A stretch of 64,000 bases of DNA from Patescibacteria group bacterium. GTDB lineage: Bacteria; Patescibacteriota; Patescibacteriia; JAXHNJ01. Positions 28,386 to 52,040 of this stretch are shown here, piece by piece (the first letter of the stretch is position 1; each line of letters begins with the position of its first letter). The translations under genes were made by a program, and so were the position numbers. The DNA is taken from assembly GCA_041649715.1 (NCBI GenBank), contig JBAZMP010000002.1:4964-68963 (forward strand), read 5' to 3'. The notes below the pieces were generated by a model. That model ran no database searches. It saw nothing but the letters and a program-made list of their open reading frames with translations, and had not been told where the DNA came from.

Positions 28386-28520
28386 TTTTTACCATTAAAA
28401 AAATAAGGTTAGAGTGCTTATAATATAACATTTTTTACGTTTCAAGTCAAAGTAAAACTTCAGCAGCATTTGCTTAATTTGCGGTCCTTTGCTAGAGTGA
28501 ATTCAGATATAATAAAAAAT

Positions 28521-29585
28521 ATGAAAAAGTTGGAAAACAAAAATATTTTTCAAAAATACGACTCCGGAAAAGTTTTGTCTTCCTTAGAGCAGCTGCCTAA
28601 ACAATGCCGCCAAGCGCAGAAAGAAACAAAAAATTTAAAATTTCCGGCTGAATACCGCCGGGTCAGAAACATCCTTGTTTGCGGCATGGGCGGTTCGGGT
28701 TTGGGCAGCGACCTGATCCGAAATGTCTTTGCGAGCCGTTTAAGAGTGCCTCTTAATATCAATGCGGATTATGACTTGCCCGATTACGTGGATAAGGATA
28801 GTCTGGTCGTTGCTTCCAGCTATTCCGGCAATACCGAAGAAACATTGGTTGCCTGCCGCGCCGCTTTGAAGCGGGGGTCTAAACTTTTAGTTATTTCCGC
28901 CGGCGGAAAATTAGCGGGTTTTGCCCGGCACCGTCGTCTGCCGGCCTATATTTTTACGCCTAATTTTAATCCTTCTGGCCAGCCCCGTCTGGGTCTCGGT
29001 TACTCGGTCATCAGCCAAACGGAGATTTTTAGAAAACTGAATATATTAAGAATATCGGAAAAAGAAATAGAGTCAGCCATCGGTTTTTTGGAGTCGTCAA
29101 TCAATGATTTTTCAATAGCGGCCAGAAATAATCCCGCTAAACAGATCGCTTACCGTTTTTTCAGAAAAGTCCCGGTTATTTTTTCCGGCAATTCTCTTTT
29201 GGGCAGCGCTCATGTCTTGGCCAATCAGATCAATGAAAATGCCAAGAATTACGTCAGTTTTTACGCCTTGCCCGAATTAAATCACCATCTTTTGGAAGGT
29301 TTGACCCATCCAACGGTTTTGCGCCAATTTACTTTTTTGCTTCTGGAATCAAACCTCGATTCGCCCGCGGTAAAAAAGCGTTTTTCGGTCACCAGGAAAA
29401 TACTGGCAAAGAAGAAACTGGAAGCGACTACGCTTGTGGCCAAGGGCCGCGACCGCTTTAGCCAGGCTTTATGGCTGATGCTTTTCGGCGGCTTTGCCAG
29501 TTTTTACCTGGCGATGTTAAATCAGGAAAATCCCTCCTTGATCCCCTGGGTGGATTTCTTAAAAAGGGAATTAGCCAAAAAATAA
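28521..29585 (+). CDS. SIS-domain bifunctional phosphoglucose/phosphomannose isomerase (archaeal-type PGI/PMI).
   Basis: Sugar-isomerase domain GMGGSGLGSDL and a size of about 355 aa. The start was chosen at ATG 28521 (MKKLENK); the track ORF uses TTG at 28470. TATAAT sits at 28508-28513. Confidence 0.65.
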   Translation: MKKLENKNIFQKYDSGKVLSSLEQLPKQCRQAQKETKNLKFPAEYRRVRNILVCGMGGSGLGSDLIRNVFASRLRVPLNINADYDLPDYVDKDSLVVASSYSGNTEETLVACRAALKRGSKLLVISAGGKLAGFARHRRLPAYIFTPNFNPSGQPRLGLGYSVISQTEIFRKLNILRISEKEIESAIGFLESSINDFSIAARNNPAKQIAYRFFRKVPVIFSGNSLLGSAHVLANQINENAKNYVSFYALPELNHHLLEGLTHPTVLRQFTFLLLESNLDSPAVKKRFSVTRKILAKKKLEATTLVAKGRDRFSQALWLMLFGGFASFYLAMLNQENPSLIPWVDFLKRELAKK

Positions 29586-29668
29586 TATTATAAGCAATAA
29601 AACTCCCGGCTTCCGTGCTTGGCCAGGAGTTTTTTATTTTGGCTAAACAAGCCTGAAAATGATATACT

Positions 29669-31297
29669 GTGAGTATGAAAAAAATAGAGAAAATATACCA
29701 ATCTTTAGCGAAAAATTGGTTTTGGTTTTCTTTCGTAATTTTGGCAATAATCGCCTTTTTAGTTTTTTCATATTTTCAGTACAGCGCCACCTTTGCCGAT
29801 CCGGATTCTTTCTACCACGCCAAAGCCAGTCTTCTGATCCGCGATCAGGGAGTATCGACGCATTTTCCCTGGCTCCAGGACACCGTTCTAAGGGATAGTT
29901 ATACGGATCAGCATTTTCTCTATCATATTTTTCTGATCCCTTTTGTCACTTTTTTTGACCCTTTGGTGGGCATAAAACTGGCGACCGTTTTTTTAGGGAC
30001 GATATTAATACTCGTCTTTTACGCCCTCCTCCGGCGTTTGCAGGTAAGGGGTGCCTATTTATTTTCCCTCATTTTATTGCTTATTAATCCGTTCACTTTT
30101 CGGATCAGCCTGGCCAAAGCGCCGAGCGTTTCCCTGATTTTTCTGATATTAGGGCTTTATTTTATTTTTAGCCGCCGGCCAAAATGGCTTTTTTTCATTT
30201 CTTTTCTTTATGTCTGGTTTTACGGCGGTTTCATTCTCATTATGGCGGCGACTTTGATCTATCTATTTGTCGGTCTTGTATATGACCGCTGGTGGAAAAA
30301 AAACGAGCCTCACCGTTTCCTGGAAAAGATATTCGCTCTCCTGGGGCGCTCGCACCGCTTCAGGGAGAAAAAAAGAAATAATTTAAAAATATTCCTGGCG
30401 GTACTGCTCGGGCTAATTGCTGGTTTGGTGGTCAATCCTTATTTCCCCAAAAATTTCGGCTTTTACTACCACCAGCTGATCAAGATCGGTATCATAAACT
30501 ACTCAAAAATAATCGGAGTAGGCGGGGAGTGGTATCACTACAAATTTTTCGATTTAATTACCGACACCATGTCGGTTTCCGTCATTTTAGTGATTGCTCT
30601 GATTTTATTTTTTATCTGCATAAAAAGACAATCAAAAATTTCTTTCACGCTTTTTTTCATCTATATCCTGTTTTTTATTTTTACCCTCAAATCAAGGCGG
30701 TACGTCGAGTATTACGTTCCTTTCGCCCTGCTTTTCGCAAGCGTCTCCCTGCGCGATTCTCTAGCCCACTTGAATTTTAAAAAGTATCTATCGGCTTTTA
30801 AATCCGCCTATTTTAAAAATATATGGTCAAAATTATTCATTTCCCTGTTCATCCTTTATCTCGGCATTATTCTGCCCGTCATCATTGTCCGCGACTTTAA
30901 GGCCCAAAGGAGGGACTTAAGCAACGGCATCCCTTTTAATAAATATTACCAGGTTTCCCAGTGGCTTATTGGAAACAGCGCCGCCGGCACGATCGTTATT
31001 CACAGCGACTGGGATGATTTTCCCGTGCTTTTTTACCATAATTCGCACAACTATTATATCGTAGGCTTAGACCCGACCTTCATGTATGAATATAATAAGG
31101 ACCTGTACTGGAAGTGGGTCGATTTAACTACCGGTAAAGAAGTGCCTGATTTGTATGAAGTGGTAAAAAATGAATTCAAGGCTAGCTATCTGGTGATTGA
31201 AAAAGACCATGGCGGCATGTACCGGTTTGTTTCCCAAACGAAAAATTTCGGCCTGGTATACGAAGATAATGAGGTATATTTATACCAGGTTAATTGA
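29669..31297 (+). CDS. Large polytopic membrane protein with a C-terminal soluble domain; possible GT-C-fold glycosyltransferase, not confirmed.
   Basis: Ten or more hydrophobic helices and an acidic motif (FADPDSFYH) in the first extracytoplasmic loop. Confidence 0.4.
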   Translation: MSMKKIEKIYQSLAKNWFWFSFVILAIIAFLVFSYFQYSATFADPDSFYHAKASLLIRDQGVSTHFPWLQDTVLRDSYTDQHFLYHIFLIPFVTFFDPLVGIKLATVFLGTILILVFYALLRRLQVRGAYLFSLILLLINPFTFRISLAKAPSVSLIFLILGLYFIFSRRPKWLFFISFLYVWFYGGFILIMAATLIYLFVGLVYDRWWKKNEPHRFLEKIFALLGRSHRFREKKRNNLKIFLAVLLGLIAGLVVNPYFPKNFGFYYHQLIKIGIINYSKIIGVGGEWYHYKFFDLITDTMSVSVILVIALILFFICIKRQSKISFTLFFIYILFFIFTLKSRRYVEYYVPFALLFASVSLRDSLAHLNFKKYLSAFKSAYFKNIWSKLFISLFILYLGIILPVIIVRDFKAQRRDLSNGIPFNKYYQVSQWLIGNSAAGTIVIHSDWDDFPVLFYHNSHNYYIVGLDPTFMYEYNKDLYWKWVDLTTGKEVPDLYEVVKNEFKASYLVIEKDHGGMYRFVSQTKNFGLVYEDNEVYLYQVN

Positions 31298-31338
31298 AGA
31301 CATTCAGTCCGAAACAATAAATCTCCTTTTTTATTTAT

Positions 31339-32730
31339 ATGTCAATAAATATTTCCGCCAGGCTAAAGAGTTATTTGAAGGTTTATCGGGATGTTTTTCG
31401 ATTTTTCGCGCTTGACACCTGGCTTTTTACTTTTTTATCGACGCTTTCCTTTTCTCAAATTTATCCGTATTTTTTTTACTATCATGGGGTCTATTACCTA
31501 TTAGCGGCATTGGTTCTTCTAGTCTTGAGCCTTTATATCGGGTACGATATCCTTACATATTTCAAAAAAGATATTCTGCTCCACCGCGATAATATGGGCC
31601 AAAAGAAGCTTAAGTTAGTTATCTCGATGGTCTTGATCTTTATAGGTGGGTATTTGTTGAGCATATTTTGCCGACCTTCAGAAGTTATTGACACTAAAGG
31701 ATTGATGATACACGATGAAATTGTTCAGTCTAAATACACCATAAAGTATTTTCTGGAAGGAAAAGATCCCTATCAGTTGAGTTATAATAACACTCCGCTG
31801 AATTTAACGGATTATTATCGATATATCGAAATCAACAAAAAATTATTGGTGCCAAATCCTGCTTTGGTTACCTACGCCTATCTGCCGGGGCAATTTCTCG
31901 TGGCCGTACCCTTTTACCAGCTTTTTACCGCGGTATTTCACTGGTATGACCACCGGATATTCTATGTCTTTGTGCTCCTTGGCCTTTTGTTCGTTGTTTA
32001 CCGATTGACAAGAAATCCGCGCTATCGCCAGTTGTTATTAATAACTTTTTTCTTTTTCCCCGGTTTTTTTGATAAAATATATTTTGGCTTTAATGATTTA
32101 CAGCCTCTCCTTTTACTCCTCGCCAGCCTTCATTTTTTAAAGGAAAAACGAATTATCTGGTCGGTCGTGTTTTTGGGCGTCGCGGCCGCGAGCAAACAAA
32201 GCGTCTTATTCTTTATCCCTTTTTATTTATTGTATCTTTTCAAAAATGACTATTATTTTTCTTCGGAAAGAAGAAAAAAGACGATTCTTTCCCTTTTAAT
32301 CTTAGTGACCTTGGCGGCAGCGGTAGTTCTGCCTTTTTATTTTTGGAGCCCAAAGGATTTCATCAACGATGTCCTTGATTATCAAACCGGTAAGTCAGCC
32401 CAAAGCTATCCGATACACGGGCGAGGTTTTTCCGCTCTGATCTTCAGTGTTTTACGGTTAGTTCCTACGGTAAATGATTACTACCCATTTATTATTTGGC
32501 AGGTTATCTTCGCTTTACCGGTATTTGTCTATTGTCTCATAAGACAATACAGAGATAATTCGCTTAAAAATGTGATCACAAATTACTTATTAACCTTACT
32601 GGTTTTTTGGTATTTTTCCCGCTATATTTTCATTAATCATTACACTTATATGGCGCTTTTTTTGCCGGTGGCCTATCTAATCGAGGCAGGTGGACAAGAG
32701 GGTAAAACGGCAAATAAGTCCGTAGGCTAG
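31339..32730 (+). CDS. Polytopic membrane protein, possibly DUF2029/GT87-like.
   Basis: Shared motifs with the next gene (AAASKQSVLFFIPFYLLY vs LACVSKQSAWLILPFYFFY). The exact start is uncertain; an internal ATG is possible. Confidence 0.35.
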   Translation: MSINISARLKSYLKVYRDVFRFFALDTWLFTFLSTLSFSQIYPYFFYYHGVYYLLAALVLLVLSLYIGYDILTYFKKDILLHRDNMGQKKLKLVISMVLIFIGGYLLSIFCRPSEVIDTKGLMIHDEIVQSKYTIKYFLEGKDPYQLSYNNTPLNLTDYYRYIEINKKLLVPNPALVTYAYLPGQFLVAVPFYQLFTAVFHWYDHRIFYVFVLLGLLFVVYRLTRNPRYRQLLLITFFFFPGFFDKIYFGFNDLQPLLLLLASLHFLKEKRIIWSVVFLGVAAASKQSVLFFIPFYLLYLFKNDYYFSSERRKKTILSLLILVTLAAAVVLPFYFWSPKDFINDVLDYQTGKSAQSYPIHGRGFSALIFSVLRLVPTVNDYYPFIIWQVIFALPVFVYCLIRQYRDNSLKNVITNYLLTLLVFWYFSRYIFINHYTYMALFLPVAYLIEAGGQEGKTANKSVG

Positions 32731-32746
32731 GAACCAGTTTCAAATT

Positions 32747-34072
32747 ATGGTTAACTCATCTCAAAAGACAATCGGACTTGATTTTATCCTGCTTTTTTCT
32801 TTGGTTTTTTATTTTGTCATTCAGGAGAATTGGATAAAATTGTCCAGCCTTTTTTTGGCCTTTATGGCCCTTAGCGGGATCGTTTCCTATTATTTTATAA
32901 GCCAGTCAAAAATAGGGGACGGAAAAAAACATTATATTAAATTAGCGATCATTCTTGTTTTGATTGTTTCTTTGGTTTTATTCTCGCTTGTTCACCAGAT
33001 CATTTTACGCCGACAAGGAGCGGACATTCATTACACGCATGACGGAGCGGTGCAGACCGAGGAAGCGAGCAAATTCCTGGCTCAAGGGGTTGACCCTTAC
33101 GCGGCCGATTATCGGAATACGCCTTTCGGCCATTTTATTGATACCTACAGCGGCGGGGAAAGGGAGAATCCGGCCTGGACGCACTATGTTTATCTGCCGT
33201 TCTTGCCGGTTTTTTCCCTGCCTTTCCAGGCGGTAATAAAACAGATCGCCGGTTTTTTCGACCAGAGAATGGTCTATGGTTTATTGTTCATGGCAAGCCT
33301 GTTTTTTATCTACAAGCTTCCGGAAGAAAAAGACAAAAAATTGATCGGTTTGATTATTTTTGCCTTTAATCCGATCTTTGCCCGCCATTTAGTGCATGGT
33401 TTTAACGATATTTTTGTTTTTTTCTGGCTGATTTTTTCTCTTTATTTATTGAAACAAAAGAAATATTATTGGTCGGCCGGCATGCTGGCCTTAGCCTGCG
33501 TCTCCAAACAGTCTGCCTGGTTGATCCTGCCCTTTTATTTTTTCTATTTGTATTTTGCCGAAAATCCAATGAAGGCATTTTTGGATAAAATAAGGGGCAT
33601 TTTTAAAAAGCTCATCCCGTTTTTCCTGCTGGCGGCGGCCATCTTTACGCCTTTTCTCATCTGGGGCTTTGATGATTTTATCGATGACATCTACCGTTAT
33701 CCGGCCGGCAGCATCGCCTCCAATTTTCCCGCGATCGGTTATGGTTTTTCCCGCCTTTTCTATCTGGCGGGATTTATGCCAAGCCCCTGGAGTTATTTCC
33801 CTTTTTGGATTTTTCAGGCTTTCTTCGGCCTGCCGCTTTTTTATTTTCTGATCAAAAAGCAAATGAAGAATAATAATTTGTCAGCCCTCTTTATTAATTA
33901 CGGCCTTTTTCTGCTTGTTTTTTGGTTTTTTTCCCGTTTTTTTAACGACAACTATATCTCCTATCTTTCCCTTATTTTTCTGGCCGGCTATTTAGTTGAG
34001 GAAAAAATGACGCATAACGAGGCCGAAAAAACGGACAAAACGGTTTTAAACAATAATAAGGTTGGGCTATGA
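32747..34072 (+). CDS. Polytopic membrane protein, paralog of 31339..32730.
   Basis: Motifs collinear with the preceding gene. Its TGA stop overlaps the next gene's ATG (ATGA at 34069-34072). Confidence 0.4.
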   Translation: MVNSSQKTIGLDFILLFSLVFYFVIQENWIKLSSLFLAFMALSGIVSYYFISQSKIGDGKKHYIKLAIILVLIVSLVLFSLVHQIILRRQGADIHYTHDGAVQTEEASKFLAQGVDPYAADYRNTPFGHFIDTYSGGERENPAWTHYVYLPFLPVFSLPFQAVIKQIAGFFDQRMVYGLLFMASLFFIYKLPEEKDKKLIGLIIFAFNPIFARHLVHGFNDIFVFFWLIFSLYLLKQKKYYWSAGMLALACVSKQSAWLILPFYFFYLYFAENPMKAFLDKIRGIFKKLIPFFLLAAAIFTPFLIWGFDDFIDDIYRYPAGSIASNFPAIGYGFSRLFYLAGFMPSPWSYFPFWIFQAFFGLPLFYFLIKKQMKNNNLSALFINYGLFLLVFWFFSRFFNDNYISYLSLIFLAGYLVEEKMTHNEAEKTDKTVLNNNKVGL

Positions 34073-35730
34073 GAGGATATTTTCCCGCAATCAATAAAAA
34101 GGAGTGGTTTTTTGTCATTAAAATAAGCCTGATCTTAATTTTTGTCACGACAATCCCTTACATTTACGGCTATCTGATTACGCCGGCGGATAAATTTTTC
34201 CCCGGCATACATTCCCTGGGGCCCGGGGATTATAACGTTTATTATTCTTATATTGAACAGGTAAATCAGGGCCGTTTTATTTTTACCGATCTTTTTACCG
34301 GGGAAGAGCATCGCCCGTTTAATTTTAACCCTTTATGGCTGACCGTGGGCTTGTTCGGCAGATTTTTCCATTTGCCTTCAATTGCCACCCTGCAGGCCTC
34401 GCGCGCCTTTTTAATTTTCCCCTTTGCTCTTGTTTTGTATCTCTTCATCAGTTTTTTCATCAAGTCTCCGGCCCGGCGGCGCCTTGGGTTCCTTTTTTCT
34501 GTCTTTGCCTCGGGTCTGGGCAGTTTTTTCCTGCCGCTTATTAATCACTGGTACGGCCCGTCCCTGCCCTTGTCCCTTTATCCCATGGACCTTTGGGTAT
34601 CCGAAGGATATAATTTTTTGACCCTCTACCACACGCCGCATTTCATCGCGGCGACCGCGCTGATAATTTTTATCTTCCTCTTTCTTTTTAAATCCTTTGA
34701 AAAAGGCAGCTGGCGTTCTCTATTTTTCGCCGGCATCGCGAGTTTGATCTTAATGTTTTTTCATCCTTTTCATCTGCCGACTATTTTGGCCGTGCCGTTG
34801 GCTTATATTTTTGTCGCTTCATGGCGGGCCGGAAAATTATTGCGGCCTTATATCACGAAGTACTTTGTTTTTTTGCTTTTAACGTCGCCCGCGGTTATTT
34901 ACCAGTTTTTATTGGTCATTTATGATCCGGTGGCCGCCGGGCGGGCGGCGCAAAACATTTGCCAAACTGACCGCTTCTGGGTTTTTTTGATCAGTTACGG
35001 TCTCATTTTGCCCTTTGCTTTAATCGGCCTATGGTATAAAAAGCCCAGAAGCAACAAGCATATATTTTTGGCGACCTGGCTAATCGCCCAGTTTTTCCTT
35101 ATTTTCGCTCCGCTTACTTTTCAGAGAAGGTTGACCGAAGGGTGGCAGATACCTTTGTGTTTGTTCGCCTTTTGGGGCCTTCAATATTTCTGGGAATTTA
35201 TTAAGCGCAAAAAACCGGCCATTGATTCGTCCGGCTATAAAATTATATTTGTCAGCCTGATTGTTCTTTTATTCGGGCTTTCCAACTTCCATGTGGTCGC
35301 CCAGGACCTCTCGCTTTATACCAGCGCCGAATTTCGCGACCCGCCGCAATATGTTTATCTGGACAAAGGGTTCGGCGAAGCTTTTAAATGGATGAAACAA
35401 AATTTAACGTCTCAAGACGTCGTGTTTAGCGATGTCATCGCCAGCTCTTTTATCGCCGGTTTTACCGGCAAAAGAATCTACATCGGCCACTCGGTGGAAA
35501 CCCTTGATTTCGCCAAAAAAAGAGAAATAGCCAAATGGTTTTTCGAAAGCAATACGGGCGATGCTGAAAAAGAGCAATTCTTAAAAAATAACAAAATAAC
35601 CTATCTATTTGCGAACAATTTTATCTCTGTTGATTATAAAAATACAGCCGGGATTTTCAATCCTGCCACTAAGAATTATTTGAACCCGGTGTTTAAAAGC
35701 GGCGAAGTTGCAATTTATAAGGTGAAATAA
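34069..35730 (+). CDS. Large polytopic membrane protein, fourth member of the array.
   Basis: 553 aa with more than 10 helices. DYNVYYSYIEQVNQG motif in the first loop. Confidence 0.35.
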   Translation: MRGYFPAINKKEWFFVIKISLILIFVTTIPYIYGYLITPADKFFPGIHSLGPGDYNVYYSYIEQVNQGRFIFTDLFTGEEHRPFNFNPLWLTVGLFGRFFHLPSIATLQASRAFLIFPFALVLYLFISFFIKSPARRRLGFLFSVFASGLGSFFLPLINHWYGPSLPLSLYPMDLWVSEGYNFLTLYHTPHFIAATALIIFIFLFLFKSFEKGSWRSLFFAGIASLILMFFHPFHLPTILAVPLAYIFVASWRAGKLLRPYITKYFVFLLLTSPAVIYQFLLVIYDPVAAGRAAQNICQTDRFWVFLISYGLILPFALIGLWYKKPRSNKHIFLATWLIAQFFLIFAPLTFQRRLTEGWQIPLCLFAFWGLQYFWEFIKRKKPAIDSSGYKIIFVSLIVLLFGLSNFHVVAQDLSLYTSAEFRDPPQYVYLDKGFGEAFKWMKQNLTSQDVVFSDVIASSFIAGFTGKRIYIGHSVETLDFAKKREIAKWFFESNTGDAEKEQFLKNNKITYLFANNFISVDYKNTAGIFNPATKNYLNPVFKSGEVAIYKVK

Positions 35731-35776: not shown

Positions 35777-37804
35777 TTATAAAGTTATCCACAGGGGCGT
35801 AATTTCCCCCAATTTGTCTGATTTTTTGATAAACGGCCGGAATATTTTATCTTTACTCAAGCCCATCTTGCCCTCAGTATTGTACAGGGAAATTTTTAAC
35901 TGGTAATCGCCGGGAGTGACAGAGGCGGGGATCAAAAATTTATAATTCACTTCGATCAATTCGCCGGCCAGCCAGTCGTGAGTGGGGTAGAAGGCGGAGA
36001 GAGGATAGTTATCCTGCCAAACAATTTTGCTATTTTGTTCCAATTTCACCGTCATTTGATAATCGCGGCTGATTTTTTTCTCGCTCCGCCAGTAAAGAGA
36101 AAGCGGTAGCAAGCGGTAAGCATGATCATTGATCGATTCGGTGGTTATTGCCGATTGTTTAAGGCCGGCTAATTTTACGGCATTGTTAAAATCAATATTA
36201 CTGGAGGTGGCCTGGGCGGGCAATTTTTTTATGACGGCGTAAGGACTACTTTCGGCCCCAAGGCAGTCTTTTGTGTAAAGGAGAAATTTACCAAGATAAC
36301 GGTTAAGGCAAAAATCATTAGCGCTGATTAACTCGCGCATTCTTTGGGCGCCCCCGATATTATTCTCGTCATCCTCGCGGTACAAGTAATGGTAGTAGTT
36401 AAAATCAGAAAAATCAAAGAGCAGCGTCTGCGCGTCTGGCGGGATTCGGTAGTCTTGCGACGAGTATTGTTTTTTTCCCAAATACTGGTAGTGCAGCGAA
36501 TAAATTTTTTCCCGACCGGAAAGCCGCGGAATAAATTGAAAGCCGGTGGCGACCGGCGTGTCACGGTCAATAAGCGAAACAAAATCGTTTCTCAGACGTA
36601 CCTCCTCTTTGATCTTCGGATAACCAAAAAAATCCTTGGCCAGCCAAAATGCCGAGCCGGCATAAAGCGAAGAGTAGACGGCGATAATAACCACGATCGT
36701 GAGAAAAATCGACCTCTCCTTTTGCAGGATTGCCAACAGCTTGCCCTTATTCGGCCGATATAGAATTTTTTCCAGAGCGAAGACCAGGCCGATAAAAAGA
36801 AAAGGGATTATCAGAGAAGTATAGTGAATTTCCAAAGCAAGGGGGCCACCCGAGCCGAGCATGAGGATTTGAAAAATGATCAAGGCGACAGGCAAAAGAT
36901 ACTTTATTTTTATCAACGGCAAAAAGCCGAAAGGAAGAAAAAGCCCGGCTAAAAAGACGATATTATCCCCGGAAAATAGGTGTTTTAAAACCAACCAGGG
37001 ATGCCCGAAGAAATTTAATATGATGCTTTTTAAGTCTTGGCCAAGCCAGCCGTAATACAGGATAAATTTATATTGGCCATAACCGGAAAAATAGCCGGTG
37101 ATTTTAGTGGCGAAAATAAACCAGGCCAAGCCAATAACAAAAGGTACGACAATCCATTTCCATGATTTTTTCTCTATTAAGGCAAAAAAACTAAAAGCTA
37201 AAACAACCAACGCCGCATCTTCCCGCACCAACAAAGTAAGAATCAAAAACAGCAAAAATAAGCCAAATTTTTCTTCCAAATAATAATAGAAAAAAAGAAA
37301 AAACAGCGGGATGGCAAAAGGCAAAATATGAAATTCATAGGAGTTGGTGTTTTGAACAAAAACATTGCTAAGATAAAGTAAGCCTAAAAGCAAGCTTAAG
37401 TTTTCACCAAGTTTTTTTCTGGCGATTAAATAGAGGGGATAGGCGCCGAAAGCAAGGACGGCGGTTTGAAGGATGAGCAGACTGACCGGACTTTTAATTA
37501 AAAAATAGAGAGGGAGAAAAAAAAGAATAATCAGTTCGAAATGATCGCCCAGGTACGAATGAGGATGGATGGTCAGGCTGAAAAGATCTCCTTGGCTGGA
37601 ATTAAAAAAAACCTGGTTATAAATCGCCAGATCCAAACCGATATAATTGTAGGTGAAGTATTTATAGAGGCAAAAACCGGAGAATAAAATAATATAGGAG
37701 ATAATAAAAATCCAGAGGATTGGGCGAGAATGTTTTTTAATCCGTTCACTCCAGGTTTTTCCCGTAATTACCAGGCGTGAAAAAATATCTTGGCGGGTGG
37801 TCAT
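35777..37804 (-). CDS. Large polytopic membrane protein with a C-terminal beta-rich ectodomain (DUF2079-like?).
   Basis: 675 aa. GLDLAIYNQVFFNSSQGDLF motif in the first loop. Confidence 0.35.
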   Translation of the reverse strand: MTTRQDIFSRLVITGKTWSERIKKHSRPILWIFIISYIILFSGFCLYKYFTYNYIGLDLAIYNQVFFNSSQGDLFSLTIHPHSYLGDHFELIILFFLPLYFLIKSPVSLLILQTAVLAFGAYPLYLIARKKLGENLSLLLGLLYLSNVFVQNTNSYEFHILPFAIPLFFLFFYYYLEEKFGLFLLFLILTLLVREDAALVVLAFSFFALIEKKSWKWIVVPFVIGLAWFIFATKITGYFSGYGQYKFILYYGWLGQDLKSIILNFFGHPWLVLKHLFSGDNIVFLAGLFLPFGFLPLIKIKYLLPVALIIFQILMLGSGGPLALEIHYTSLIIPFLFIGLVFALEKILYRPNKGKLLAILQKERSIFLTIVVIIAVYSSLYAGSAFWLAKDFFGYPKIKEEVRLRNDFVSLIDRDTPVATGFQFIPRLSGREKIYSLHYQYLGKKQYSSQDYRIPPDAQTLLFDFSDFNYYHYLYREDDENNIGGAQRMRELISANDFCLNRYLGKFLLYTKDCLGAESSPYAVIKKLPAQATSSNIDFNNAVKLAGLKQSAITTESINDHAYRLLPLSLYWRSEKKISRDYQMTVKLEQNSKIVWQDNYPLSAFYPTHDWLAGELIEVNYKFLIPASVTPGDYQLKISLYNTEGKMGLSKDKIFRPFIKKSDKLGEITPLWITL

Positions 37805-37849: not shown

Positions 37850-37896
37850 GAAAACAAACCCGCCCCGCCATTTATGGCGGGGCGGGGTGATATTTG
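37850..37896 (-). terminator. Strong rho-independent terminator after the pilin-like gene 37912..38277.
   Basis: Perfect 12-bp stem CCCGCCCCGCCA / TGGCGGGGCGGG (37869-37880 / 37885-37896), followed by a U-rich tract on the minus strand. Confidence 0.65.
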
Positions 37897-37911: not shown

Positions 37912-38277
37912 TTAGGTAGTGACATTCGTAGTCGTGTTGACGACGAAGATGACAATGGCCCAGGCGAGCAAGATGATAATTAAACCAATCACAGCGGCTG
38001 AAATGACCTTTTTGGCCTTTTCAATCTTTTCTTCATTGCCGGCGGCGGTCATCCATTGGAAACCACCAATGATGATCATAATGACAGCGATTAAAGCGAG
38101 TAAGCCCAAAACCCATTGAAGGATGTTGATAACGCTTTGTTTCAGATCAGCGGTGCCTAAGCCCAGAGTGCCACCGACATTCTCAATGGAGAGCGGCGTT
38201 TGGGCCATGGCGACAAACGGCAAAGCGAAAGCAAGGACCGTCGTGGCGACTAATGCGATTTTTTTCATAGTTTTCAC
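37912..38277 (-). CDS. Small exported protein with VirB2/TrbC-like architecture (T4SS-pilin-like).
   Basis: MKKIALVATTVLAFALPFVAMA signal, then helix ILQWVLGLLALIAVIMIIIGGFQW, loop MTAAGNEEKIEKAKK, helix VISAAVIGLIIILLAWAIVIFVV. GGGGGTG Shine-Dalgarno site upstream. Confidence 0.45.
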   Translation of the reverse strand: MKTMKKIALVATTVLAFALPFVAMAQTPLSIENVGGTLGLGTADLKQSVINILQWVLGLLALIAVIMIIIGGFQWMTAAGNEEKIEKAKKVISAAVIGLIIILLAWAIVIFVVNTTTNVTT

Positions 38278-38319
38278 CCCCTTTCGGTAAAAGATATATT
38301 TTATTGTTTTTTACTTTTA

Positions 38320-38676
38320 CTAGACGGTGACGTCTCTGGTCGTATTGACCACGAAAATAATGATCGCCCAGGCGAGCAAGATGATAATGATGCCAATCAC
38401 TGCGCCAGAAATCATTTTCTTGGCCTTATCGATCTTGTCTTCATTGCCGGCGGCGGTCATCCACATAAAGCCCGCGATAACGAGTATGACCACGGCGATC
38501 AGGCCGAGCAGGCCCAAAATCCATTGAAGGATGTTGATAACGCTGGCCTTCAGATCAGCGGTGCCTAAGCCCAGGGTGCCGCCGATATTCTCAATGGAGA
38601 GCGGCGTTTGGGCCATGGCGACAAACGGCAAAGCGAAAGCAAGGACCGTCGTGGCGACTAATGCGATTTTTTTCAT
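38320..38676 (-). CDS. Tandem paralog of 37912..38277.
   Basis: About 85% identical protein with the same architecture. Confidence 0.45.
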   Translation of the reverse strand: MKKIALVATTVLAFALPFVAMAQTPLSIENIGGTLGLGTADLKASVINILQWILGLLGLIAVVILVIAGFMWMTAAGNEDKIDKAKKMISGAVIGIIIILLAWAIIIFVVNTTRDVTV

Positions 38677-38762
38677 AGTTTTTTGCTTTTTAGTTAGTTA
38701 ATTAAACGCTTCCTCCTTCTTAATTAAATTATCATAACACAGAATAAAAAAATTGTCAAATT

Positions 38763-39095
38763 CTAGCTGGTGGCGCTGGTAAAAATCTGCAATACATAGT
38801 TAAGGAAGGCCCAGCTGCCTAAGATAACAACAATTCCAATGGTCGCCCAGACTAAAGTATCTTTGCCTTTTTTGACCCGTTCCGGATTGCCGCCCGAGCC
38901 CAAAATTTGGATGCCGCCCCAGATGAACATCGCCAGGGCAAAAATGGCGACCAGACCGAGAATGATGCGGATCAAATTCTCTAAGAGGCAGTTCGCCGTG
39001 TCGCAGGACAGCGGATTTTCCAATTTGACGGCGTAGCAGTCCAGTGGCAAAACAAAGGCCAAGAGGATGAAAATAACAATGAGTTTTGTTTTCAT
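38763..39095 (-). CDS. Third pilin-like protein.
   Basis: Signal peptide; GGIQILGSGGNPERVKKGKDTLVWATIGIVVILGSWAFLNYV. Confidence 0.4.
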   Translation of the reverse strand: MKTKLIVIFILLAFVLPLDCYAVKLENPLSCDTANCLLENLIRIILGLVAIFALAMFIWGGIQILGSGGNPERVKKGKDTLVWATIGIVVILGSWAFLNYVLQIFTSATS

Positions 39096-39114
39096 AAAAT
39101 TATTTATATAATTT

Positions 39115-40572
39115 TTATAAAGGATAAGAGGCGTTGCAATATTTGCCGTCTATGTCACCGCTTGTCTGAGAATTACTCGGTCTCTCGTTATAATAGAATT
39201 CTGCGCCCGAGATATCATTACATTTACTCCGCGGCATCCAGTTGCAGCTGTAGTTAGTCGCGTCTTTTTGTTTGACGCAGGTGCCATAATTGCACGTTTC
39301 TAAATCATCTTTTACGTTAGTTGTCATCTGTATGCTTGTATAGGAGCTGCCAGTCGGGGTATAGCCAGCGGGGCAAACAAGTCTTTGTATCAAACATTCA
39401 TTGTTACTCCGAACACAAAGACGAAAAAGACAACTAGGGATGTCAAGACAGGATGTTCCGGCACTAAATGTTTGCCCGGCTAAAGTGCATTTTGAACGAG
39501 TGGTCATCGTGCACTCTGTTGTGAGAAGAGATACGTCAGGAATGCAACAGCCATAGTCGCAGGCGCCGGTATTCAAACACTTAGAACCTTCAGCGTGATA
39601 AGAAGCATTGGCGCCTTTTGTCCGGCCGGCGCAAGTACTGTCAGTCGAATCATAACAGCTGCATTCAGGGCAGATGGTTCTGTTTGGGACACAACAAGTC
39701 GTGGGAGCAAGGTCGCCCGGTTGGGGCAGGCCTTTCAATAAATCGCCTGACCCGGCCAGGCACATGCCGCCGGCCTCGATGGTCGCCCAGGTGGCATCAT
39801 CAACGATGCCCGTCGGTTTTAAGTCAGAACCGAGTATGCTATTCGCCAACTGAAAGCTTGTTACGCATTCTTTGGTTTGTTCGCCAAAACATCCGTCGAC
39901 ATCACCGCAAGCGCAATCACCGCGGCCATTTAAAGTTTTTTGCAGGCTCTGCACATATCGGTCAGTGGCTGAATTTTTAATGCCGCCGCAGCCGTATTGA
40001 AGGGCGTTCCTGGCGCAGTCTTTGTTCATGGTCTGATGGCAATCGGTGCCTTGCCACCAGAGCTGGCCGAAGATTTGACCCTGTTTTTCCGGGCCGAGCA
40101 GGGCGCCGACGGCAAAATTGATGATCAGCCAGGCGCCCAGGACGATGAGCATGCCGGTGACCGCCCCCTTGATAGTGGCCGTAGATTTTTGGATTTTTTC
40201 CTGGCTGCCGGCGGCCAAAATATAGCCAAAAGCCCCCCAGATAAAGAAAAAGAGGGTGACCAGGGCGACGGCAGTGATGCCGATACTGAAGCCATTGGCC
40301 AGCAACGCGACAAAATCCTCAAACCCGCACGGTCTGTTGATGTAGGTGCCAGAAATTTTGCCATTATCGCTTTCGCTGTAATCGCTGGCTAGGACGCATT
40401 CTTTTGTTGTGGCGTTTTCCTGGCAAGGGATCTTGCCGCCTGTTTGCACCTGGTAGGTGGTTTGGTCGCAATCCGGCAAAAGCTTGGGGAGTGTTAAGGC
40501 CCGGCCCTTGAGGGGGAGTAAAATCGCCAGTATGATAAGCCCAAATAAATGTAATTTAAGGTATTTTCTCAT
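39115..40572 (-). CDS. Pilin-like N-terminal two-helix anchor fused to a peptidoglycan-binding-like segment and a Cys-rich ectodomain of about 300 aa.
   Basis: Anchor LVTLFFFIWGAFGYILAAGSQEKIQKSTATIKGAVTGMLIVLGAWLIINFAV. A PG_binding_1-like segment VQSLQKTLNGRG…DGCFGEQTKECVTSFQ…GIVDDATWATI. About 30 Cys residues after position 150. Confidence 0.4.
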   Translation of the reverse strand: MRKYLKLHLFGLIILAILLPLKGRALTLPKLLPDCDQTTYQVQTGGKIPCQENATTKECVLASDYSESDNGKISGTYINRPCGFEDFVALLANGFSIGITAVALVTLFFFIWGAFGYILAAGSQEKIQKSTATIKGAVTGMLIVLGAWLIINFAVGALLGPEKQGQIFGQLWWQGTDCHQTMNKDCARNALQYGCGGIKNSATDRYVQSLQKTLNGRGDCACGDVDGCFGEQTKECVTSFQLANSILGSDLKPTGIVDDATWATIEAGGMCLAGSGDLLKGLPQPGDLAPTTCCVPNRTICPECSCYDSTDSTCAGRTKGANASYHAEGSKCLNTGACDYGCCIPDVSLLTTECTMTTRSKCTLAGQTFSAGTSCLDIPSCLFRLCVRSNNECLIQRLVCPAGYTPTGSSYTSIQMTTNVKDDLETCNYGTCVKQKDATNYSCNWMPRSKCNDISGAEFYYNERPSNSQTSGDIDGKYCNASYPL

Positions 40573-40581: not shown

Positions 40582-41979
40582 TTATAGAGTTTTTTCGATT
40601 TTTTGAGCGGCCAAATTGATGGCCTGGCCAAGGTCGGCTTCTTCCAAGGCGACGGAATCGATCATTTCTTTAAAATAGTCCTTGGCAAGGGAGGCGTCGC
40701 GACCCTTATACCAGCTTTGGGCGGTCAGTGCTTGGTTGGCCCAGACCTGAAGATCGGGATTTTTGATCTGTTCCTGGAGGACAGATTTCAGCGGCGAGAT
40801 TTTGCCGGTGGTGGCCACGTAGGTAATGTTTCTTTTTTCCCGGGCGAGGACCTGGATAAAATCCCAGGCTTCATTCGGCGCTTTGGTTTTTTTCGCCACG
40901 GTTTCCACCCAATAACCGCCGTAGTTGATTTGGACAGGATTGCCGGCTGGATTCAGCACTCTGTCCGTGCCGTCGATATTGATGTGGAATATTTCTGTAA
41001 TGCCTAAGTTTAAGCCCGGGGCGCCTGCCTGTATCAGTTCTTTCTCGCTCAAGTAGCCCAGATAGTAAGCGGATTTTCCGCTTATAAAAGCGTCCAAGCT
41101 TTCCGGTTGTTTGCTGTTCCAGGAGTAAGTTTCCTTGTTTAGATCGGTAAAACCGGTATAAAAATCCAGGGCTCGGACACCCAGGTCGCCGGCTTCAACA
41201 CCCTGGCTGAAAGAAACCTTTTTTCCGTCGGCGGTAAGCATTTGTGTGCCGTTCTGCATCATGATAAGGGAAAGAATGTCAAAATAGTTTTTGATGTTCG
41301 AAGAAAGGCCTAAGGCGATGCAGGACTGTAAAATATTATTCTGCTGATCAAGAAGGGTCAGTTTTGAGCATTGAATGACCAGTTCCTGCCAGGTTTTGGC
41401 CGGGGCGGGCAGGTGAGCATTGTTCAGCAGGTCTTCGTTATAATAAAGCCCAAGAGTGTCGACGCTATAGGGCAGGCCGTAAATTTTGGCCAGGCCGCTT
41501 GAATCAGTCAAGACCACGTCTTTTTGGACCACATCGATGTAATTGCTGCTCAACTCAGCCAAATTAATTGAAGCGCTGGTTGCATATTTTACGTTGACTG
41601 ATTGCCCTATAATGTTTTTTTTAGTCTCGTACCAAGCGACTCTTGTTTGGTTGGGCAGCGGCAGAATTATATCCTGGTATTTTTTAAGCCAGGTATTAGG
41701 CAAAGAAAAAATATCGGGACCGGCATCCCTCGCCAGGGCGTTGATCAGATTCTTTTCATAATCCTCAAGCTTGACTTTGACAAAATTAAATTTTACATAA
41801 GGGTGGACCGCCTGATAGGCTTGGACGACAGCGGCGTAGTCTGTCGGGTCGTCTTCGACAATCCAGTAATTGAGAGTGACGGATTTGGGCGTAACTTTAT
41901 TCCCGCGGTATATAAAAGCAAGCGCCAGCGGGGCGACGATGGCGAGAAAGAGGGCGCCGATTATTAAGTATTTTCTCAT
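40582..41979 (-). CDS. Extracellular solute-binding protein (ABC transporter family-1, sugar-type); orphan.
   Basis: N-terminal anchor plus SBP_bac_1-like features. No permease or ATPase genes are adjacent. Confidence 0.65.
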   Translation of the reverse strand: MRKYLIIGALFLAIVAPLALAFIYRGNKVTPKSVTLNYWIVEDDPTDYAAVVQAYQAVHPYVKFNFVKVKLEDYEKNLINALARDAGPDIFSLPNTWLKKYQDIILPLPNQTRVAWYETKKNIIGQSVNVKYATSASINLAELSSNYIDVVQKDVVLTDSSGLAKIYGLPYSVDTLGLYYNEDLLNNAHLPAPAKTWQELVIQCSKLTLLDQQNNILQSCIALGLSSNIKNYFDILSLIMMQNGTQMLTADGKKVSFSQGVEAGDLGVRALDFYTGFTDLNKETYSWNSKQPESLDAFISGKSAYYLGYLSEKELIQAGAPGLNLGITEIFHINIDGTDRVLNPAGNPVQINYGGYWVETVAKKTKAPNEAWDFIQVLAREKRNITYVATTGKISPLKSVLQEQIKNPDLQVWANQALTAQSWYKGRDASLAKDYFKEMIDSVALEEADLGQAINLAAQKIEKTL

Positions 41980-41980: not shown

Positions 41981-42853
41981 TTACTTTATTTTTAAGTTTT
42001 TTAGATATTCGCGGAAAGGTTTTTTTATTTCCGAGTGTTTCAGGGCGAATTCAACGTTGGCACGCAAATAACCCAGCTTGCTGCCGGTATCGTAGTAAGT
42101 GGCGTTTTTTATCAGGCAAGCCATCACTTTTTCTTGGCGGGCAAGCGCATTTATGGCGTCGACCAGCCAGACTTCTCCGTTTTTTCCAGGTTTTAGCTTT
42201 TCAAGATATTTGTATATCGCGGGGGTAAGGAGGTAGGCGCCATGGGTGGCCAGCGTGGAGGGGGCATTCTTGGGGGAGGGCTTCTCGACAATCTCTTGGA
42301 TCTGGTAGACATTGCCTTTGACCTTTTTGACCTTGGCAATGCCGTATTTAGAAACTTCTTCGGGCCTGACTTTTATAGCCGAAATAACCGAACACTTGTA
42401 TTTATTATAAACCGCCAGCATTTGCTTTAAACGGGGCGGGTTAGCATAGATGAATTCATCGCCCCAAATGACGATAAAAGGATCGTTGCCCACCAGATGT
42501 TTGACGTTTAGAACCGGCGTGCCGTTGCCGTAGGTGCCTTTCTGGCGGACATAGATAAAATTGGCCAGATCAGCGATGCGGCGCATTTCTTTCGCCGCCT
42601 TTTTCTTGCCGGATTCAATGAGCCGTTTTTCCAGCTCAAAGGGATAGTCGAAGTGGTCCTCAATAGATCTTTTTTGCCAGCCGGTGACGATGATGATGTC
42701 TTTGATCCCTGAAACCGCCAGTTCTTCCACCACGTACTGGATTATCGGCTTATCCACGACCGGCAACATTTCTTTCGGCTGGGCTTTAGTGGCCGGCAGA
42801 AAACGGGTGCCCAGGCCCGCGGCGGGAATAACCGCTTTGGTGATTTTTTTCAT
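41981..42853 (-). CDS. galU: UTP--glucose-1-phosphate uridylyltransferase.
   Basis: N-terminal KAVIPAAGLGTRFLPATKAQPKEMLPVVDKP and a size of 290 aa. Confidence 0.85.
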   Translation of the reverse strand: MKKITKAVIPAAGLGTRFLPATKAQPKEMLPVVDKPIIQYVVEELAVSGIKDIIIVTGWQKRSIEDHFDYPFELEKRLIESGKKKAAKEMRRIADLANFIYVRQKGTYGNGTPVLNVKHLVGNDPFIVIWGDEFIYANPPRLKQMLAVYNKYKCSVISAIKVRPEEVSKYGIAKVKKVKGNVYQIQEIVEKPSPKNAPSTLATHGAYLLTPAIYKYLEKLKPGKNGEVWLVDAINALARQEKVMACLIKNATYYDTGSKLGYLRANVEFALKHSEIKKPFREYLKNLKIK

Positions 42854-42945
42854 GACGAGTATTATTAAAATCCGCCTTTATTATAGCAGATATTGGCGAT
42901 TTTGTAAAATAAATGAGGAAGCTTGGCTTATTCTCTGCGGTTTTT

Positions 42946-48265: not shown

Positions 48266-49036
48266 TTATTTTTTCAATTTATAGTAGCTTTTTGGATCAA
48301 GATAATCCGTTAGGAAATTACACATAGTAGTATTTGGCTCGGCGTCTTTGCAGGGGCAGGGGGATTCTTCCCGGATTTTTTTGTCAATGATCATTTCTTC
48401 TAAGTCCGCGCCGGCGGCTTCGTATTCCGTCAGGACTTGGTCCGTAAAATGCGGGAAGATGGAATCAATATTTTCATTGAAATCTTCATTTCTCGCTTTG
48501 AGCGAAATATCAAAATCATTCCCCCGCTGGCTGAATACGGCGTAGCCTAAGAGTTCTCCGGCTTTAATTTGATAGTCAGTCACCATATCTTCCAGATTAT
48601 TAAGGTGGAATATGGTTAGTTGCCAGTTTTTTGCTTGATTCGGGACCAATGTAAAGTGGTTGCCGCGTTCGGAAGACTGTATTTCAGTAATTTTTCCGTC
48701 AAATGGGGCGAAGACTTTTACTTTATCATTGCTTGGACTGTCGATTTCCTGCGGCACGAAATAATGTTTCAGGCTGCTGGAGGCCTCCGGTTCGCCGAAC
48801 AGATTGGTGGCGCCATACCAGTGGCCGGCACAGGAGCGGAAGCGGGAGATGGCTAGAATCTGGGTAAGATCGACCGGATTAGCGGTAATGAATTTTTCGC
48901 TAGCCATTTCCGCCGGGTTCATATTTGGTCTGATTTTTTGTTTTAAGAAAAAGCCGATTATCGGTATGGCCAGAATTACTAATAAAATCAGCCACCAGAA
49001 TTTTTTGAAGAATGATTTTTTGGGTTTTGCGTCCAT
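48266..49036 (-). CDS. Exported paralog-array member 1; conserved leader MDAKPKKSFFKKFWWLILL; degenerate LytM/M23-like beta domain possible.
   Basis: Start set at the conserved MDxxPKK. The C-terminal domain is similar to that of 51279..52037. Confidence 0.5.
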   Translation of the reverse strand: MDAKPKKSFFKKFWWLILLVILAIPIIGFFLKQKIRPNMNPAEMASEKFITANPVDLTQILAISRFRSCAGHWYGATNLFGEPEASSSLKHYFVPQEIDSPSNDKVKVFAPFDGKITEIQSSERGNHFTLVPNQAKNWQLTIFHLNNLEDMVTDYQIKAGELLGYAVFSQRGNDFDISLKARNEDFNENIDSIFPHFTDQVLTEYEAAGADLEEMIIDKKIREESPCPCKDAEPNTTMCNFLTDYLDPKSYYKLKK

Positions 49037-49040
49037 ATGT

Positions 49041-50312
49041 TTATCGTTCATAGGTAATTGGATTTTGGAAAGATTCGGACGCACCGCAGCGTCCTAATTG
49101 TTGTTCAATCTGAATATGCGTATCATCAATCAGCTGAAGGAGGATCTTTTCCTGGCCGTTGGTGCGGTTATCATCGTAGCAGTAGACTTTTCCGTCGGCG
49201 GTCACCTCGGAATATTCCCGGTCGATTAAGCCGGCATGTTTCGGGATAAACCAGAAACCCGTCACGTTTGAGACGGTGAATTTCGCGTATTGGGTCTCAA
49301 CATTGTCGTGAATTAAGATCATCGCGTTATTATTGTCAGTGACATTTTTTGTCGTCACCGGATTTTTAAACCAGTTGCCGGCCGCTGTACCGGGGATATC
49401 ATACATGATTTTTCCGCAGACCGGCTCGGTGGTTTTTGCGACAAATACCTGGGTATCGCTTCCCTGTGACCTCATGTCGCCGAACAAAGCAGAGTATTTG
49501 GCTTTCAGCTCGGGAGTATAATAATCTGTCAGGCAGTAAGCATGATTGGTAAAGGTGTAGTACCGGTCCGGATTGGCGAAGCCTAAGGCCGGTTTGTTAT
49601 AATCATACAGCCCGTAATCAACATGCATATTTTTTGGTCCCAATTTGCCCATATAGCCGATAATCTCGCCGGCTTTCAGCTGAATCCTGTCAAAATTCGG
49701 GTGGCAGGTGTAATACCAGCTTTGTTCATCTTCTTCGGTTTTTTCCTGACTGCAATTCAAGTTTTCTTCGTGAACAGCCGCGGCCAGCTTAGGCGAAAGT
49801 TTCGTGTAATGAACCATGGAAAGGTTAATGCCGCGGCAGGGGACCATATTAATCTGATAATCGTTGCCTATCAATGAATCATCGCTTTTGTAGTATTTTT
49901 GCTTAATTTCTACCCAGATCAGGGTCATGTCGGAGGGAGCGTAGACCGGAACTTCGGCGGTATATTCCCCGGCATAAGGATATATGTGGTCAACCGGTAC
50001 GACATGGCCGGACTCGTTTGAATTGCCCAAAGGGATGATGCGCAAGGGTAAGCCTTCGTCCATGAACGGCACGGTGAATATTTGCGAGGTATCGGCCGGG
50101 CAGGCCGGTAGGTCCGAAGCCAAGCTTAAGGCTTGGAGATCATCACTTTGAATTTGACTGGTATTAGTTTCTTCCGGTGTATTTTGTTTTACGTTTTTGT
50201 CTGACTCAGTTTTTTTGCAGGCGGAAATAAAAAGGACCAGACAGAAAACCGCGGCGATAATGAATATTCTTTTAATCATAGACTTTTTTGGTTGAATGTT
50301 TTTTAATCCCAT
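49041..50312 (-). CDS. Array member 2: a lipoprotein variant (lipobox LFISAC) carrying the family C-terminal domain.
   Basis: C-terminal …EYSEVTADGKVYCYDD…LLQLIDDTHIQIEQQLGRCGASESFQNPITYER. Confidence 0.5.
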   Translation of the reverse strand: MGLKNIQPKKSMIKRIFIIAAVFCLVLFISACKKTESDKNVKQNTPEETNTSQIQSDDLQALSLASDLPACPADTSQIFTVPFMDEGLPLRIIPLGNSNESGHVVPVDHIYPYAGEYTAEVPVYAPSDMTLIWVEIKQKYYKSDDSLIGNDYQINMVPCRGINLSMVHYTKLSPKLAAAVHEENLNCSQEKTEEDEQSWYYTCHPNFDRIQLKAGEIIGYMGKLGPKNMHVDYGLYDYNKPALGFANPDRYYTFTNHAYCLTDYYTPELKAKYSALFGDMRSQGSDTQVFVAKTTEPVCGKIMYDIPGTAAGNWFKNPVTTKNVTDNNNAMILIHDNVETQYAKFTVSNVTGFWFIPKHAGLIDREYSEVTADGKVYCYDDNRTNGQEKILLQLIDDTHIQIEQQLGRCGASESFQNPITYER

Positions 50313-50313
50313 A

Positions 50314-51276: not shown

Positions 51277-51278
51277 AA

Positions 51279-52037: not shown

Positions 52038-52040
52038 AAT

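Follow-up and report, generated by a model that had tools for sequence, protein, structure and literature searches.

The closest described relatives of the genes reported here are the VirB2-like pilin arrays of Patescibacteria. VirB4 is present in 2,417 of 3,035 Patescibacteria assemblies (80%), and 1,948 of the VirB4-containing assemblies carry VirB2-like pilins (PF04956 or PF18895), with the pilins close to virB4 in 1,135 of these assemblies (PMC12102498). The same survey of type IV secretion systems (T4SSs) recorded 441 arrays, with 2-11 pilin genes each, in 383 assemblies (PMC12102498, Quinonero-Coronel et al. 2025), and found T4SS genes frequently placed near dnaA (PMC12102498). The pilin array of S. 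epibionticum is located inside the T4SS cluster and is essential (PMC10633639, PMC12857230), and in three Paceibacteria, the genes of unknown function with the highest expression include T4SS pilins (PMC10936435). VirB2-like arrays are an already described hallmark of the phylum, and an array is not new in itself. We analyzed a 64,000-nucleotide stretch of DNA (the window) from a 262-kb contig of the metagenome-assembled genome (MAG) of a Patescibacteria group bacterium, in which four consecutive minus-strand genes at 37912-40572 form such an array, defined as at least two PF18895 or PF04956 genes in tandem or one gene apart (Quinonero-Coronel et al. 2025). The first of the four genes encodes a pilin fused to a PG_binding_1 domain and a cysteine-rich tail. 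Judged by the searchable literature, this fusion family, the modularity of the long first gene, the arrangement of expression signals around major and minor subunits, and the frame of GalU, solute-binding protein (SBP) and DUF2079/glycosyltransferase genes around the array appear to be new. Neither the long subunit with its peptidoglycan-binding and cysteine-rich parts nor the GalU-SBP/DUF2079 frame is mentioned in searchable literature or supplements, and SBP_bac_1, DUF2079 and PG_binding_1 are absent from the supplements of the T4SS survey.

The four open reading frames (ORFs) that a sequence-only reading of the window had placed in this interval are all present, and they encode three kinds of subunit: one long pilin of 485 amino acids (39115-40572), one distinct short pilin of 110 amino acids (38763-39095), and two near-identical, conserved major-type pilins of 118 amino acids each, copy 1 (38320-38676) and copy 2 (37912-38268, from the ATG at 38268). 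The earlier sizes of 118 and 110 amino acids stand, whereas the 121 amino acids given for copy 2 are obtained only from a GTG at 38277; the NCBI call, the paralogue and all orthologues start at the ATG three codons downstream. The proteins of the two major copies are approximately 84-85% identical, and their DNA is identical at 304 of 366 bases. Copy 2 ends with the tail NTTTNVTT, and the 110-amino-acid pilin has a C-x5-C pair (SCDTANC) at its mature N-terminus. The latter type occurs as a single copy per array in related genomes, and its orthologues in loci L001 and L004-L007 are 44-56% identical to it. GenBank names the array proteins 'peptidoglycan-binding protein', 'pilin' and 'hypothetical protein', with 'pilin' being the NCBI name of the 110-amino-acid protein. 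The closest named relatives of the array proteins are from Candidatus Kerfeldbacteria and one Candidatus Nomurabacteria genome.

A hydropathy scan identified an N-terminal signal-like segment and two hydrophobic helices in each of the four proteins, and the charged loops between the helices include ...GGFQWMTAAGNEEKIEKAKKV... and ...ILGSGGNPERVKKGKD.... The signal peptide and two-helix hairpin with a charged loop described in the sequence-only reading are thus seen in all four, and the reported absence of the G/F-T-L-x-E class III signature was borne out: none of the four array proteins contains the G-F-T-L-x-E prepilin motif, and none matches the N_methyl profile. The VirB2/TrbC-type identity that had been proposed gained profile support. 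Pfam T4SS_pilin (PF18895) scores 53.6 bits for major copy 2, 45.1 bits for copy 1 and 49.4 bits for the 110-amino-acid pilin against a cut-off of 26.6, whereas TrbC/VirB2 (PF04956) remains just below its cut-off of 27.9 with 22-27.5 bits for the short proteins, the upper value belonging to the 110-amino-acid pilin. The two major pilins also match the NCBIfam 'Mbov_0395 family pilin-like conjugal transfer protein' (NF045849) with 47.2 and 40.7 bits (cut-off 40). It is conceivable that the array proteins resemble pilins in composition only and are small membrane proteins or lipoprotein-like anchors of unrelated origin. This reading is disfavored by the PF18895 scores of three proteins, which exceed the curated cut-off by approximately 20-27 bits, and by the NCBIfam equivalog matches of two. 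Furthermore, PF18895 is carried by 1,835 database relatives, some of which are labeled VirB2 by the Joint Genome Institute (JGI), and the alignment of pilin orthologues shows that the conserved sequence includes the loop and the mature N-terminus, beyond the hydrophobic parts. We consider a chance resemblance very improbable, and the membership of the array proteins in the T4SS_pilin/TrbC-VirB2 superfamily is confirmed, with a resemblance far beyond chance. A sequence search of the PDB with the short-pilin profile gave no match. Both ends of the hairpin are predicted to be outside the membrane, on the basis of the positive-inside rule and because the cysteine-rich and peptidoglycan-binding domains have to be outside.

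The long pilin contains a signal peptide, a small Cys-bridged N-terminal ectodomain, a VirB2-like hairpin, a PG_binding_1 domain and a Cys-rich tail. Its score against PF18895, 21 bits, is below the cut-off, and a hidden Markov model (HMM) of the short pilins and their orthologues matches it with E = 2.7e-16, while no other match in the window falls below E = 0.7. The AlphaFold2 (AF2) model of the long pilin, calculated from an alignment of 73 sequences, has a mean predicted local distance difference test score of 80.4 and consists of a signal helix, a small beta N-terminal ectodomain, the hairpin, a helical peptidoglycan-binding domain and a beta-rich, Cys-rich tail. The hairpin occupies residues 84-159 (40096-40323, minus strand) and is modeled as two 36-residue helices, 84-119 and 124-159, with the loop AAGSQEKIQK, so that the 485-residue gene indeed opens with the same hairpin as its neighbors. 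In the fold comparison of this model, solved conjugative pilins were at the top among the helical-hairpin matches only. The PG_binding_1-like segment noticed earlier is a member of PF01471 (29.4 bits against a cut-off of 23, residues 207-264), and its three-helix fold matches that of solved domains. The domain, together with its family-invariant cysteines, extends over residues 170-271 (39760-40065, minus strand), and its presence suggests that the long pilin may bind peptidoglycan. The Cys-rich tail (residues 272-485; 39118-39759, minus strand) is built of two CC-x(11)-C-x(7)-C... modules followed by a beta-rich part, and no known fold was found for it. The protein contains 34 cysteines, of which four are in the N-terminal ectodomain and 30 follow the second helix, in agreement with the earlier estimate of about 300 residues with about 30 cysteines.

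The combination of a pilin hairpin, a peptidoglycan-binding domain and a Cys-rich tail is a real family. A word-indexed protein search retrieved only three relatives of the long pilin, and it was an exhaustive HMM search that revealed the family, with 137 representatives at E <= 1e-30. Among the 150 best cluster representatives, 73 share the signal peptide, an LPNCDxTxY-type N-terminus, the hairpin, the peptidoglycan-binding domain and the Cys-rich tail; 71 of these 73 match PF18895 and 62 match PF01471. Cysteines 178, 186, 195 and 220 are conserved in all 73 members, and C228 and C271 in all members with a residue at those positions (72 of 72 and 71 of 71, respectively). The long first gene is nevertheless modular in the wider set of arrays, with the peptidoglycan-binding module in approximately nine loci and other Cys-rich ectodomains elsewhere. 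C-terminal extensions are present in 60 of 299 pilin-like ORFs and contain more than 100 cysteines in the longest proteins. Two such giants start with a major-pilin hairpin: a 3,098-residue protein with 107 cysteines (L044, 9905-19201; HMM score 112 bits) and a 1,635-residue protein with 102 cysteines (L084, 1504-6411; 98 bits). In these proteins, the VirB2-like hairpin evidently serves at the N-terminus to carry Cys-rich ectodomains of very large size. With default filters, the HMM of the Cys module missed the window protein, probably owing to the filter for composition bias, and the module counts in other loci are lower bounds.

Expression signals and conservation separate the major from the minor subunits. 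A consensus promoter (TTGACA-17-TATGAT, with TG; 38731-38759, minus strand) is located just 5' of the first major pilin gene, and L001 and L004-L007 have, at the corresponding position, a TTGAC(A/G) box and then a TATAAT-like box. The last pilin gene is immediately followed by a strong intrinsic terminator (37859-37886, minus strand) with a 12-bp stem containing 11 G-C pairs and a T-run. A GC-rich hairpin occupies this position in 12 of 12 loci despite differing sequence, and it is followed by a T-run in 11 of 12, which are all the loci whose extracted stretch passes the stem. The promoter and the terminator bracket the two major genes only, and both signals recur in related loci. A second, sigma-70-like promoter (TTTACA-17-TATAAT, with TG; 42880-42908, minus strand), which agrees with the consensus at 11 of 12 positions, precedes the gene of a GalU-like sugar-1-phosphate nucleotidyltransferase (41981-42853, minus strand; Pfam NTP_transferase, 109.6 bits). 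The transcript of the genes for the long pilin and the 110-amino-acid pilin likely starts at this promoter. The stop of the GalU-like gene overlaps the start of the next gene, which encodes a membrane-anchored extracellular solute-binding protein (SBP_bac_1; 40582-41979, minus strand; 80.1 bits) with one N-terminal transmembrane segment; the SBP gene is translationally coupled to GalU and is separated by 9 bp from the long pilin. Across genomes, the major pilins are 57-76% identical and the long pilin 31-40%. Orthologues of major copy 2 are conserved about as well as GalU and better than the other genes of the block, and the mature N-terminus and the tail ...FVAGTT(A/S)NVT of the major pilin are almost invariant in close orthologues.

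Based on these features, we propose that the locus encodes a chromosomal VirB2-type pilin set with a low-copy wall-binding subunit, assembled by a T4SS, in a genome closest to Kerfeldbacteria-type MAGs; we assign this reading a probability of roughly 0.55. We infer polymerization and T4SS dependence from the membership of the proteins in the family and from the literature. Each protein would be exported by Sec, and its signal peptide would be cut after an Ala-x-Ala-type site, leaving a membrane-embedded hairpin whose lysine-rich loop faces inward and whose two ends face outward. The major pilins, highly conserved and presumably highly expressed, would be the building blocks. They would be extracted from the membrane and assembled into a filament or conduit of the conjugation type by the phylum's Gram-positive-like T4SS, with the VirB4 required for filament assembly encoded elsewhere in the genome. 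The 110-amino-acid and long proteins would be minor subunits, co-transcribed at a lower level with GalU and the SBP. The long subunit could join the assembly through the common hairpin and present its putative wall-binding domain and the variable disulfide-rich module. It would be a rare end-piece, and it may be the first subunit to enter and come to lie at the tip, where it would serve as an adhesin toward a host cell wall. The variability of its ectodomain, which contains the peptidoglycan-binding module in some loci and other Cys-rich parts in others, is expected of an exposed, adhesin-like end subunit. Alternatively, the long subunit may be positioned at the base, tying the structure to the cell's own wall.

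Several observations weigh against assembly by a T4SS. Pfam scans of the window ORFs of at least 300 amino acids detected no VirB4, VirD4, VirB6, VirB3 or TrsD-like protein, so that the statement of the sequence-only reading that VirB4, VirD4 and VirB6 are missing from the window holds for all ORFs scanned. In none of the fetched loci was a VirB4-like gene found at 10 kb or less from the pilins of this subfamily, and the two loci with precomputed Pfam tables contain no T4SS genes within the same distance. The constant neighbors of the pilins are a sugar nucleotidyltransferase, an orphan SBP, DUF2079 and glycosyltransferases of the GT87 and GT2 types. To our knowledge, Gram-positive-type T4SSs are normally without a pilus, and we know of no VirB2-like protein of Patescibacteria for which a filament has been shown. 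A Walker-A screen of unmatched ORFs of at least 450 amino acids in the fetched loci found only ClpB-like proteins and a few other ATPases. In a Pfam scan of 62 unmatched large neighbor ORFs, PMT_2, penicillin-binding proteins, ClpB and P-type ATPases were the commonest, and there was no T4SS family among the 25 listed. Extension of the window by approximately 2-3 kb on each side with Logan contigs revealed no T4SS gene. The earlier proposal of a different filament or envelope scaffold, drawn from the absence of VirB4, may still hold, as no such gene was found within 10 kb of the pilins in the fetched loci. However, the absence of VirB4 from a 64-kb window says little, because in approximately 800 of the 1,948 assemblies that have both, the pilin genes are located away from VirB4 (PMC12102498). 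The literature makes it quite likely that VirB4 is encoded elsewhere in the genome.

The sole secretion ATPase in the window, among the scanned ORFs of at least 300 amino acids, is PilB/GspE at 2410-4176, as had been noted before. Its presence could indicate that the array proteins belong to a type IV pilus or a competence system with this ATPase as its motor. However, the array proteins lack a class III prepilin leader, contain Sec signal peptides and a two-helix hairpin, and match profiles of the VirB2 type, not N_methyl. PilB is 34 kb away and is missing from most related loci, where a single weak PilB-like match was found approximately 4 kb beyond the array (L064). The link to PilB was rejected on account of the missing prepilin motif and the missing synteny, and we regard a type IV pilus as extremely improbable.

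The array is embedded in a conserved block of genes for envelope and sugar metabolism proteins. Directly downstream of the array is the gene of a polytopic membrane protein, DUF2079 (35777-37804, minus strand; Pfam DUF2079, 203 bits), with a weak NCBIfam match to 'cell surface glycopolymer formation protein'. The block converges on an operon on the plus strand (28470-35730) that encodes, by Pfam, phosphoglucose isomerase (PGI), a 542-residue polytopic protein, two GT87-type glycosyltransferases and a 553-residue polytopic protein. The 542- and 553-residue proteins have 7-9 transmembrane segments and gave no Pfam match even at E = 0.1. No gene of an ABC permease or ATPase was found beside the SBP in the window or in related loci.

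Related loci were located with a five-sequence alignment, and the 80 metagenome loci with the major-pilin profile. Five other genomes share the order of GalU-like gene, SBP_bac_1, long pilin, 110-type pilin, two or three major-type pilins and DUF2079, and in the same genomes the block converges on PGI, the 542-residue polytopic protein, GT87 (once or twice) and the 553-residue polytopic protein. The order is kept while the identity of the SBP falls to 38% and that of DUF2079 to 31%. The block starts with the GalU-like gene in L001, L004-L007, L088, L089 and in many loci from metagenomes, and the convergent operon is syntenic with the pilin block in L001, L004-L007, L010, L018, L020, L088 and L089. 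Two of these loci, L088 and L089, represent two more NCBI genomes with precomputed Pfam tables, and they have the same order and, in addition, a 230-residue GT2 protein in the convergent operon. The gene of this protein, Glycos_transf_2 of approximately 230 residues, lies between those of the polytopic proteins (L088, 15037-15735; L089, 16056-16739). The protein resembles a synthase of polyprenyl-phosphate sugars that would supply the membrane transferases, and no Glycos_transf_2 gene was seen in the window's copy of the operon. Overall, the block occurs in named genomes of Kerfeldbacteria and Nomurabacteria as well as in approximately 20 metagenome loci, and it is kept down to 30-39% protein identity. 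The complete genome CP060223.1 also carries it. Of the 41 loci with enough upstream sequence, 25 have a homologue of the SBP immediately upstream of the array, and in 22 of these 25 the first array gene after the SBP encodes at least 200 amino acids. DUF2079 is directly downstream of the array in 17 of the 38 loci with enough sequence.

This conserved order raises the alternative of an envelope module independent of a T4SS, in which the hairpin proteins would work with GalU, SBP, DUF2079, GT2 and the GT87/polytopic neighbors. The outside, Thr/Asn-rich tails would be glycosylated from polyprenyl-phosphate sugars, and the proteins would assemble by themselves into a coat or short fiber, while the long member would staple the membrane to peptidoglycan and display its variable Cys-rich domain. 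We consider this alternative, in each of its parts, possible but doubtful. It is favored by the joint retention of the pilin block and the convergent PGI-polytopic-GT87(-GT2)-polytopic operon at such low identities, by the lack of T4SS genes within 10 kb in any fetched locus, and by the PMT_2 glycosyltransferases, which are the commonest family in the other large neighbors (6 of 62). Moreover, the almost invariant major-pilin tail contains an N-x-T motif, and of 239 short pilins, 65 have an N-x-S/T motif among their final 12 residues. A precedent that also speaks for the module comes from Pseudomonas, where the genes of TfpO and TfpW, transferases that glycosylate the pilin, come after pilin genes. 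DUF2079 could be a GT-C transferase. However, comparison of its profile with that of GT87 with hhalign indicated no relation (probability 5%), no solved relative and no paper on DUF2079 were found, and it is at most a putative transferase. Adjacency is no proof of a common pathway, the two operons are separate and convergent, and Thr/Ser-rich tails can be plain linkers; any glycosylation is putative. Elsewhere, moreover, the protein family is associated with T4SS loci, with pilins near virB4 in 1,135 assemblies (PMC12102498). A bolder version of the alternative, which we offer as speculation and consider unlikely, is that the block and the convergent operon constitute a single envelope system, conserved and independent of a T4SS, in Kerfeldbacteria-like Patescibacteria. 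VirB2-type hairpin proteins glycosylated at their conserved ...TTxNVT tails would then self-assemble into a surface fiber or a membrane-to-wall tether, and the first subunit would be a swappable carrier of Cys-rich ectodomains, ranging from the peptidoglycan-binding module to the giants of 1,635 and 3,098 residues.

The remainder of the window is chromosomal and origin-proximal. Positions 1-11000 are the neighborhood of the replication origin, with rnpA, yidC, tsaE, dnaA (7807-9342) and dnaN (9620-10720); rnpA-yidC, dnaA and dnaN at 6-11 kb are followed by PBP1, glycogen genes, RuvC and YebC. The type IV pilus ATPase gene pilB is 3.6 kb from dnaA. A compact glycogen/alpha-glucan cluster on the minus strand (17435-27183), beside RuvC and YebC, encodes two GT5 starch-synthase-like proteins, two GH57 and one GH15 proteins, a GalT-like uridylyltransferase and a 673-residue double kinase-like protein, which means that a large share of a small genome is given to sugar polymers. 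A 319-residue secreted protein encoded at 16094-17053 (minus strand) contains short 'A(I/V)TSAKI...' repeats and has no Pfam match even at E = 0.1. Six tandem paralogues at 48266-54850 (minus strand), of 272, 434, 320, 252 and 427 amino acids and one split copy, are a lineage-specific secreted protein family. All six start with a 'KKSFFK(R/K)FWW(L/M)' membrane anchor. The split copy consists of the overlapping ORFs 53335-54342 and 54122-54850 and is probably frameshifted. The sole match of the family is a borderline one to Peptidase_M23 in 51279-52037 (28.0 bits against a cut-off of 28.7). No tRNA or Rfam family was found across the 64 kb.

Few functions are known to be essential to the host-dependent life of Patescibacteria, and T4SS genes with their pilin arrays belong to them. 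The locus described here offers handles on what they do, beginning with a clear split between major and minor subunits. The minor subunit with its recognizable wall-binding domain and fast-evolving, disulfide-rich outer part is a candidate for host contact or anchoring. The fixed genomic partners of the array are a sugar-binding protein and membrane glycosyltransferases, not a secretion ATPase. The LPNCDxTxY N-terminus, the Cys-stapled peptidoglycan-binding domain and the ...GTTANVT tail can serve as markers of the system in metagenomes. If the T4SS-independent envelope system were true, it would represent a new use of the conjugative-pilin fold.

Among known systems, the array most resembles those of other Patescibacteria, S. 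epibionticum ML1 (SEML1_0006-0019) and the 'Sec secreted array' of TM7x, with which it shares PF18895/PF04956, the phylum, and chromosomal tandem genes of small two-helix proteins with signal peptides, which are often origin-proximal, as here. However, the ML1 array is within the T4SS cluster, whereas here there is no T4SS gene within 10 kb in any related locus. Paralogues in the reported Patescibacteria arrays have a mean identity of 25% and a maximum of 54%, whereas the major copies described here are approximately 85% identical and their orthologues 57-76%. The best NCBIfam match, NF045849, represents Mbov_0395/MMCAP2_0565 of Mycoplasma integrative and conjugative elements, which are likewise VirB2-like hairpins of single-membrane bacteria. 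The Mycoplasma proteins are encoded on these elements beside conjugation genes, in wall-less hosts, whereas the array is chromosomal, has housekeeping and envelope neighbors, and includes one predicted wall-binding protein. Compared with the diderm VirB2/TrbC/TraA pilins and the archaeal Ced/Ted pili (PDB 8dfu, 8dft), the array shows no sign of cyclization, of a VirB5 partner or of a nearby VirB4. The long pilin differs from the diderm pilins in its 320-residue ectodomain, and we know of no classical pilin that carries one of this kind. The pilA-tfpO/tfpW locus of Pseudomonas aeruginosa has a major pilin gene followed by that of a large polytopic protein, and its pilin has an outside C-terminus containing Ser/Thr, as here. 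However, the P. aeruginosa protein belongs to the type IV pilin class, whereas here the pilin is VirB2-like and a strong terminator stands between it and DUF2079. The peptidoglycan-binding part of the long pilin has the same three-helix fold and D-G-x-F-G...T...V..FQ motif as the PG_binding_1 domains of wall enzymes, such as the Streptomyces Zn DD-peptidase (1lbu), CtpB (4c2c) and SleB (6tci), and of the phage endolysins 5nm7 and 3bkh. Here, this domain is carried by a pilin hairpin instead of an enzyme and is laced with the family-conserved cysteines C178, C186, C195, C220, C228 and C271.

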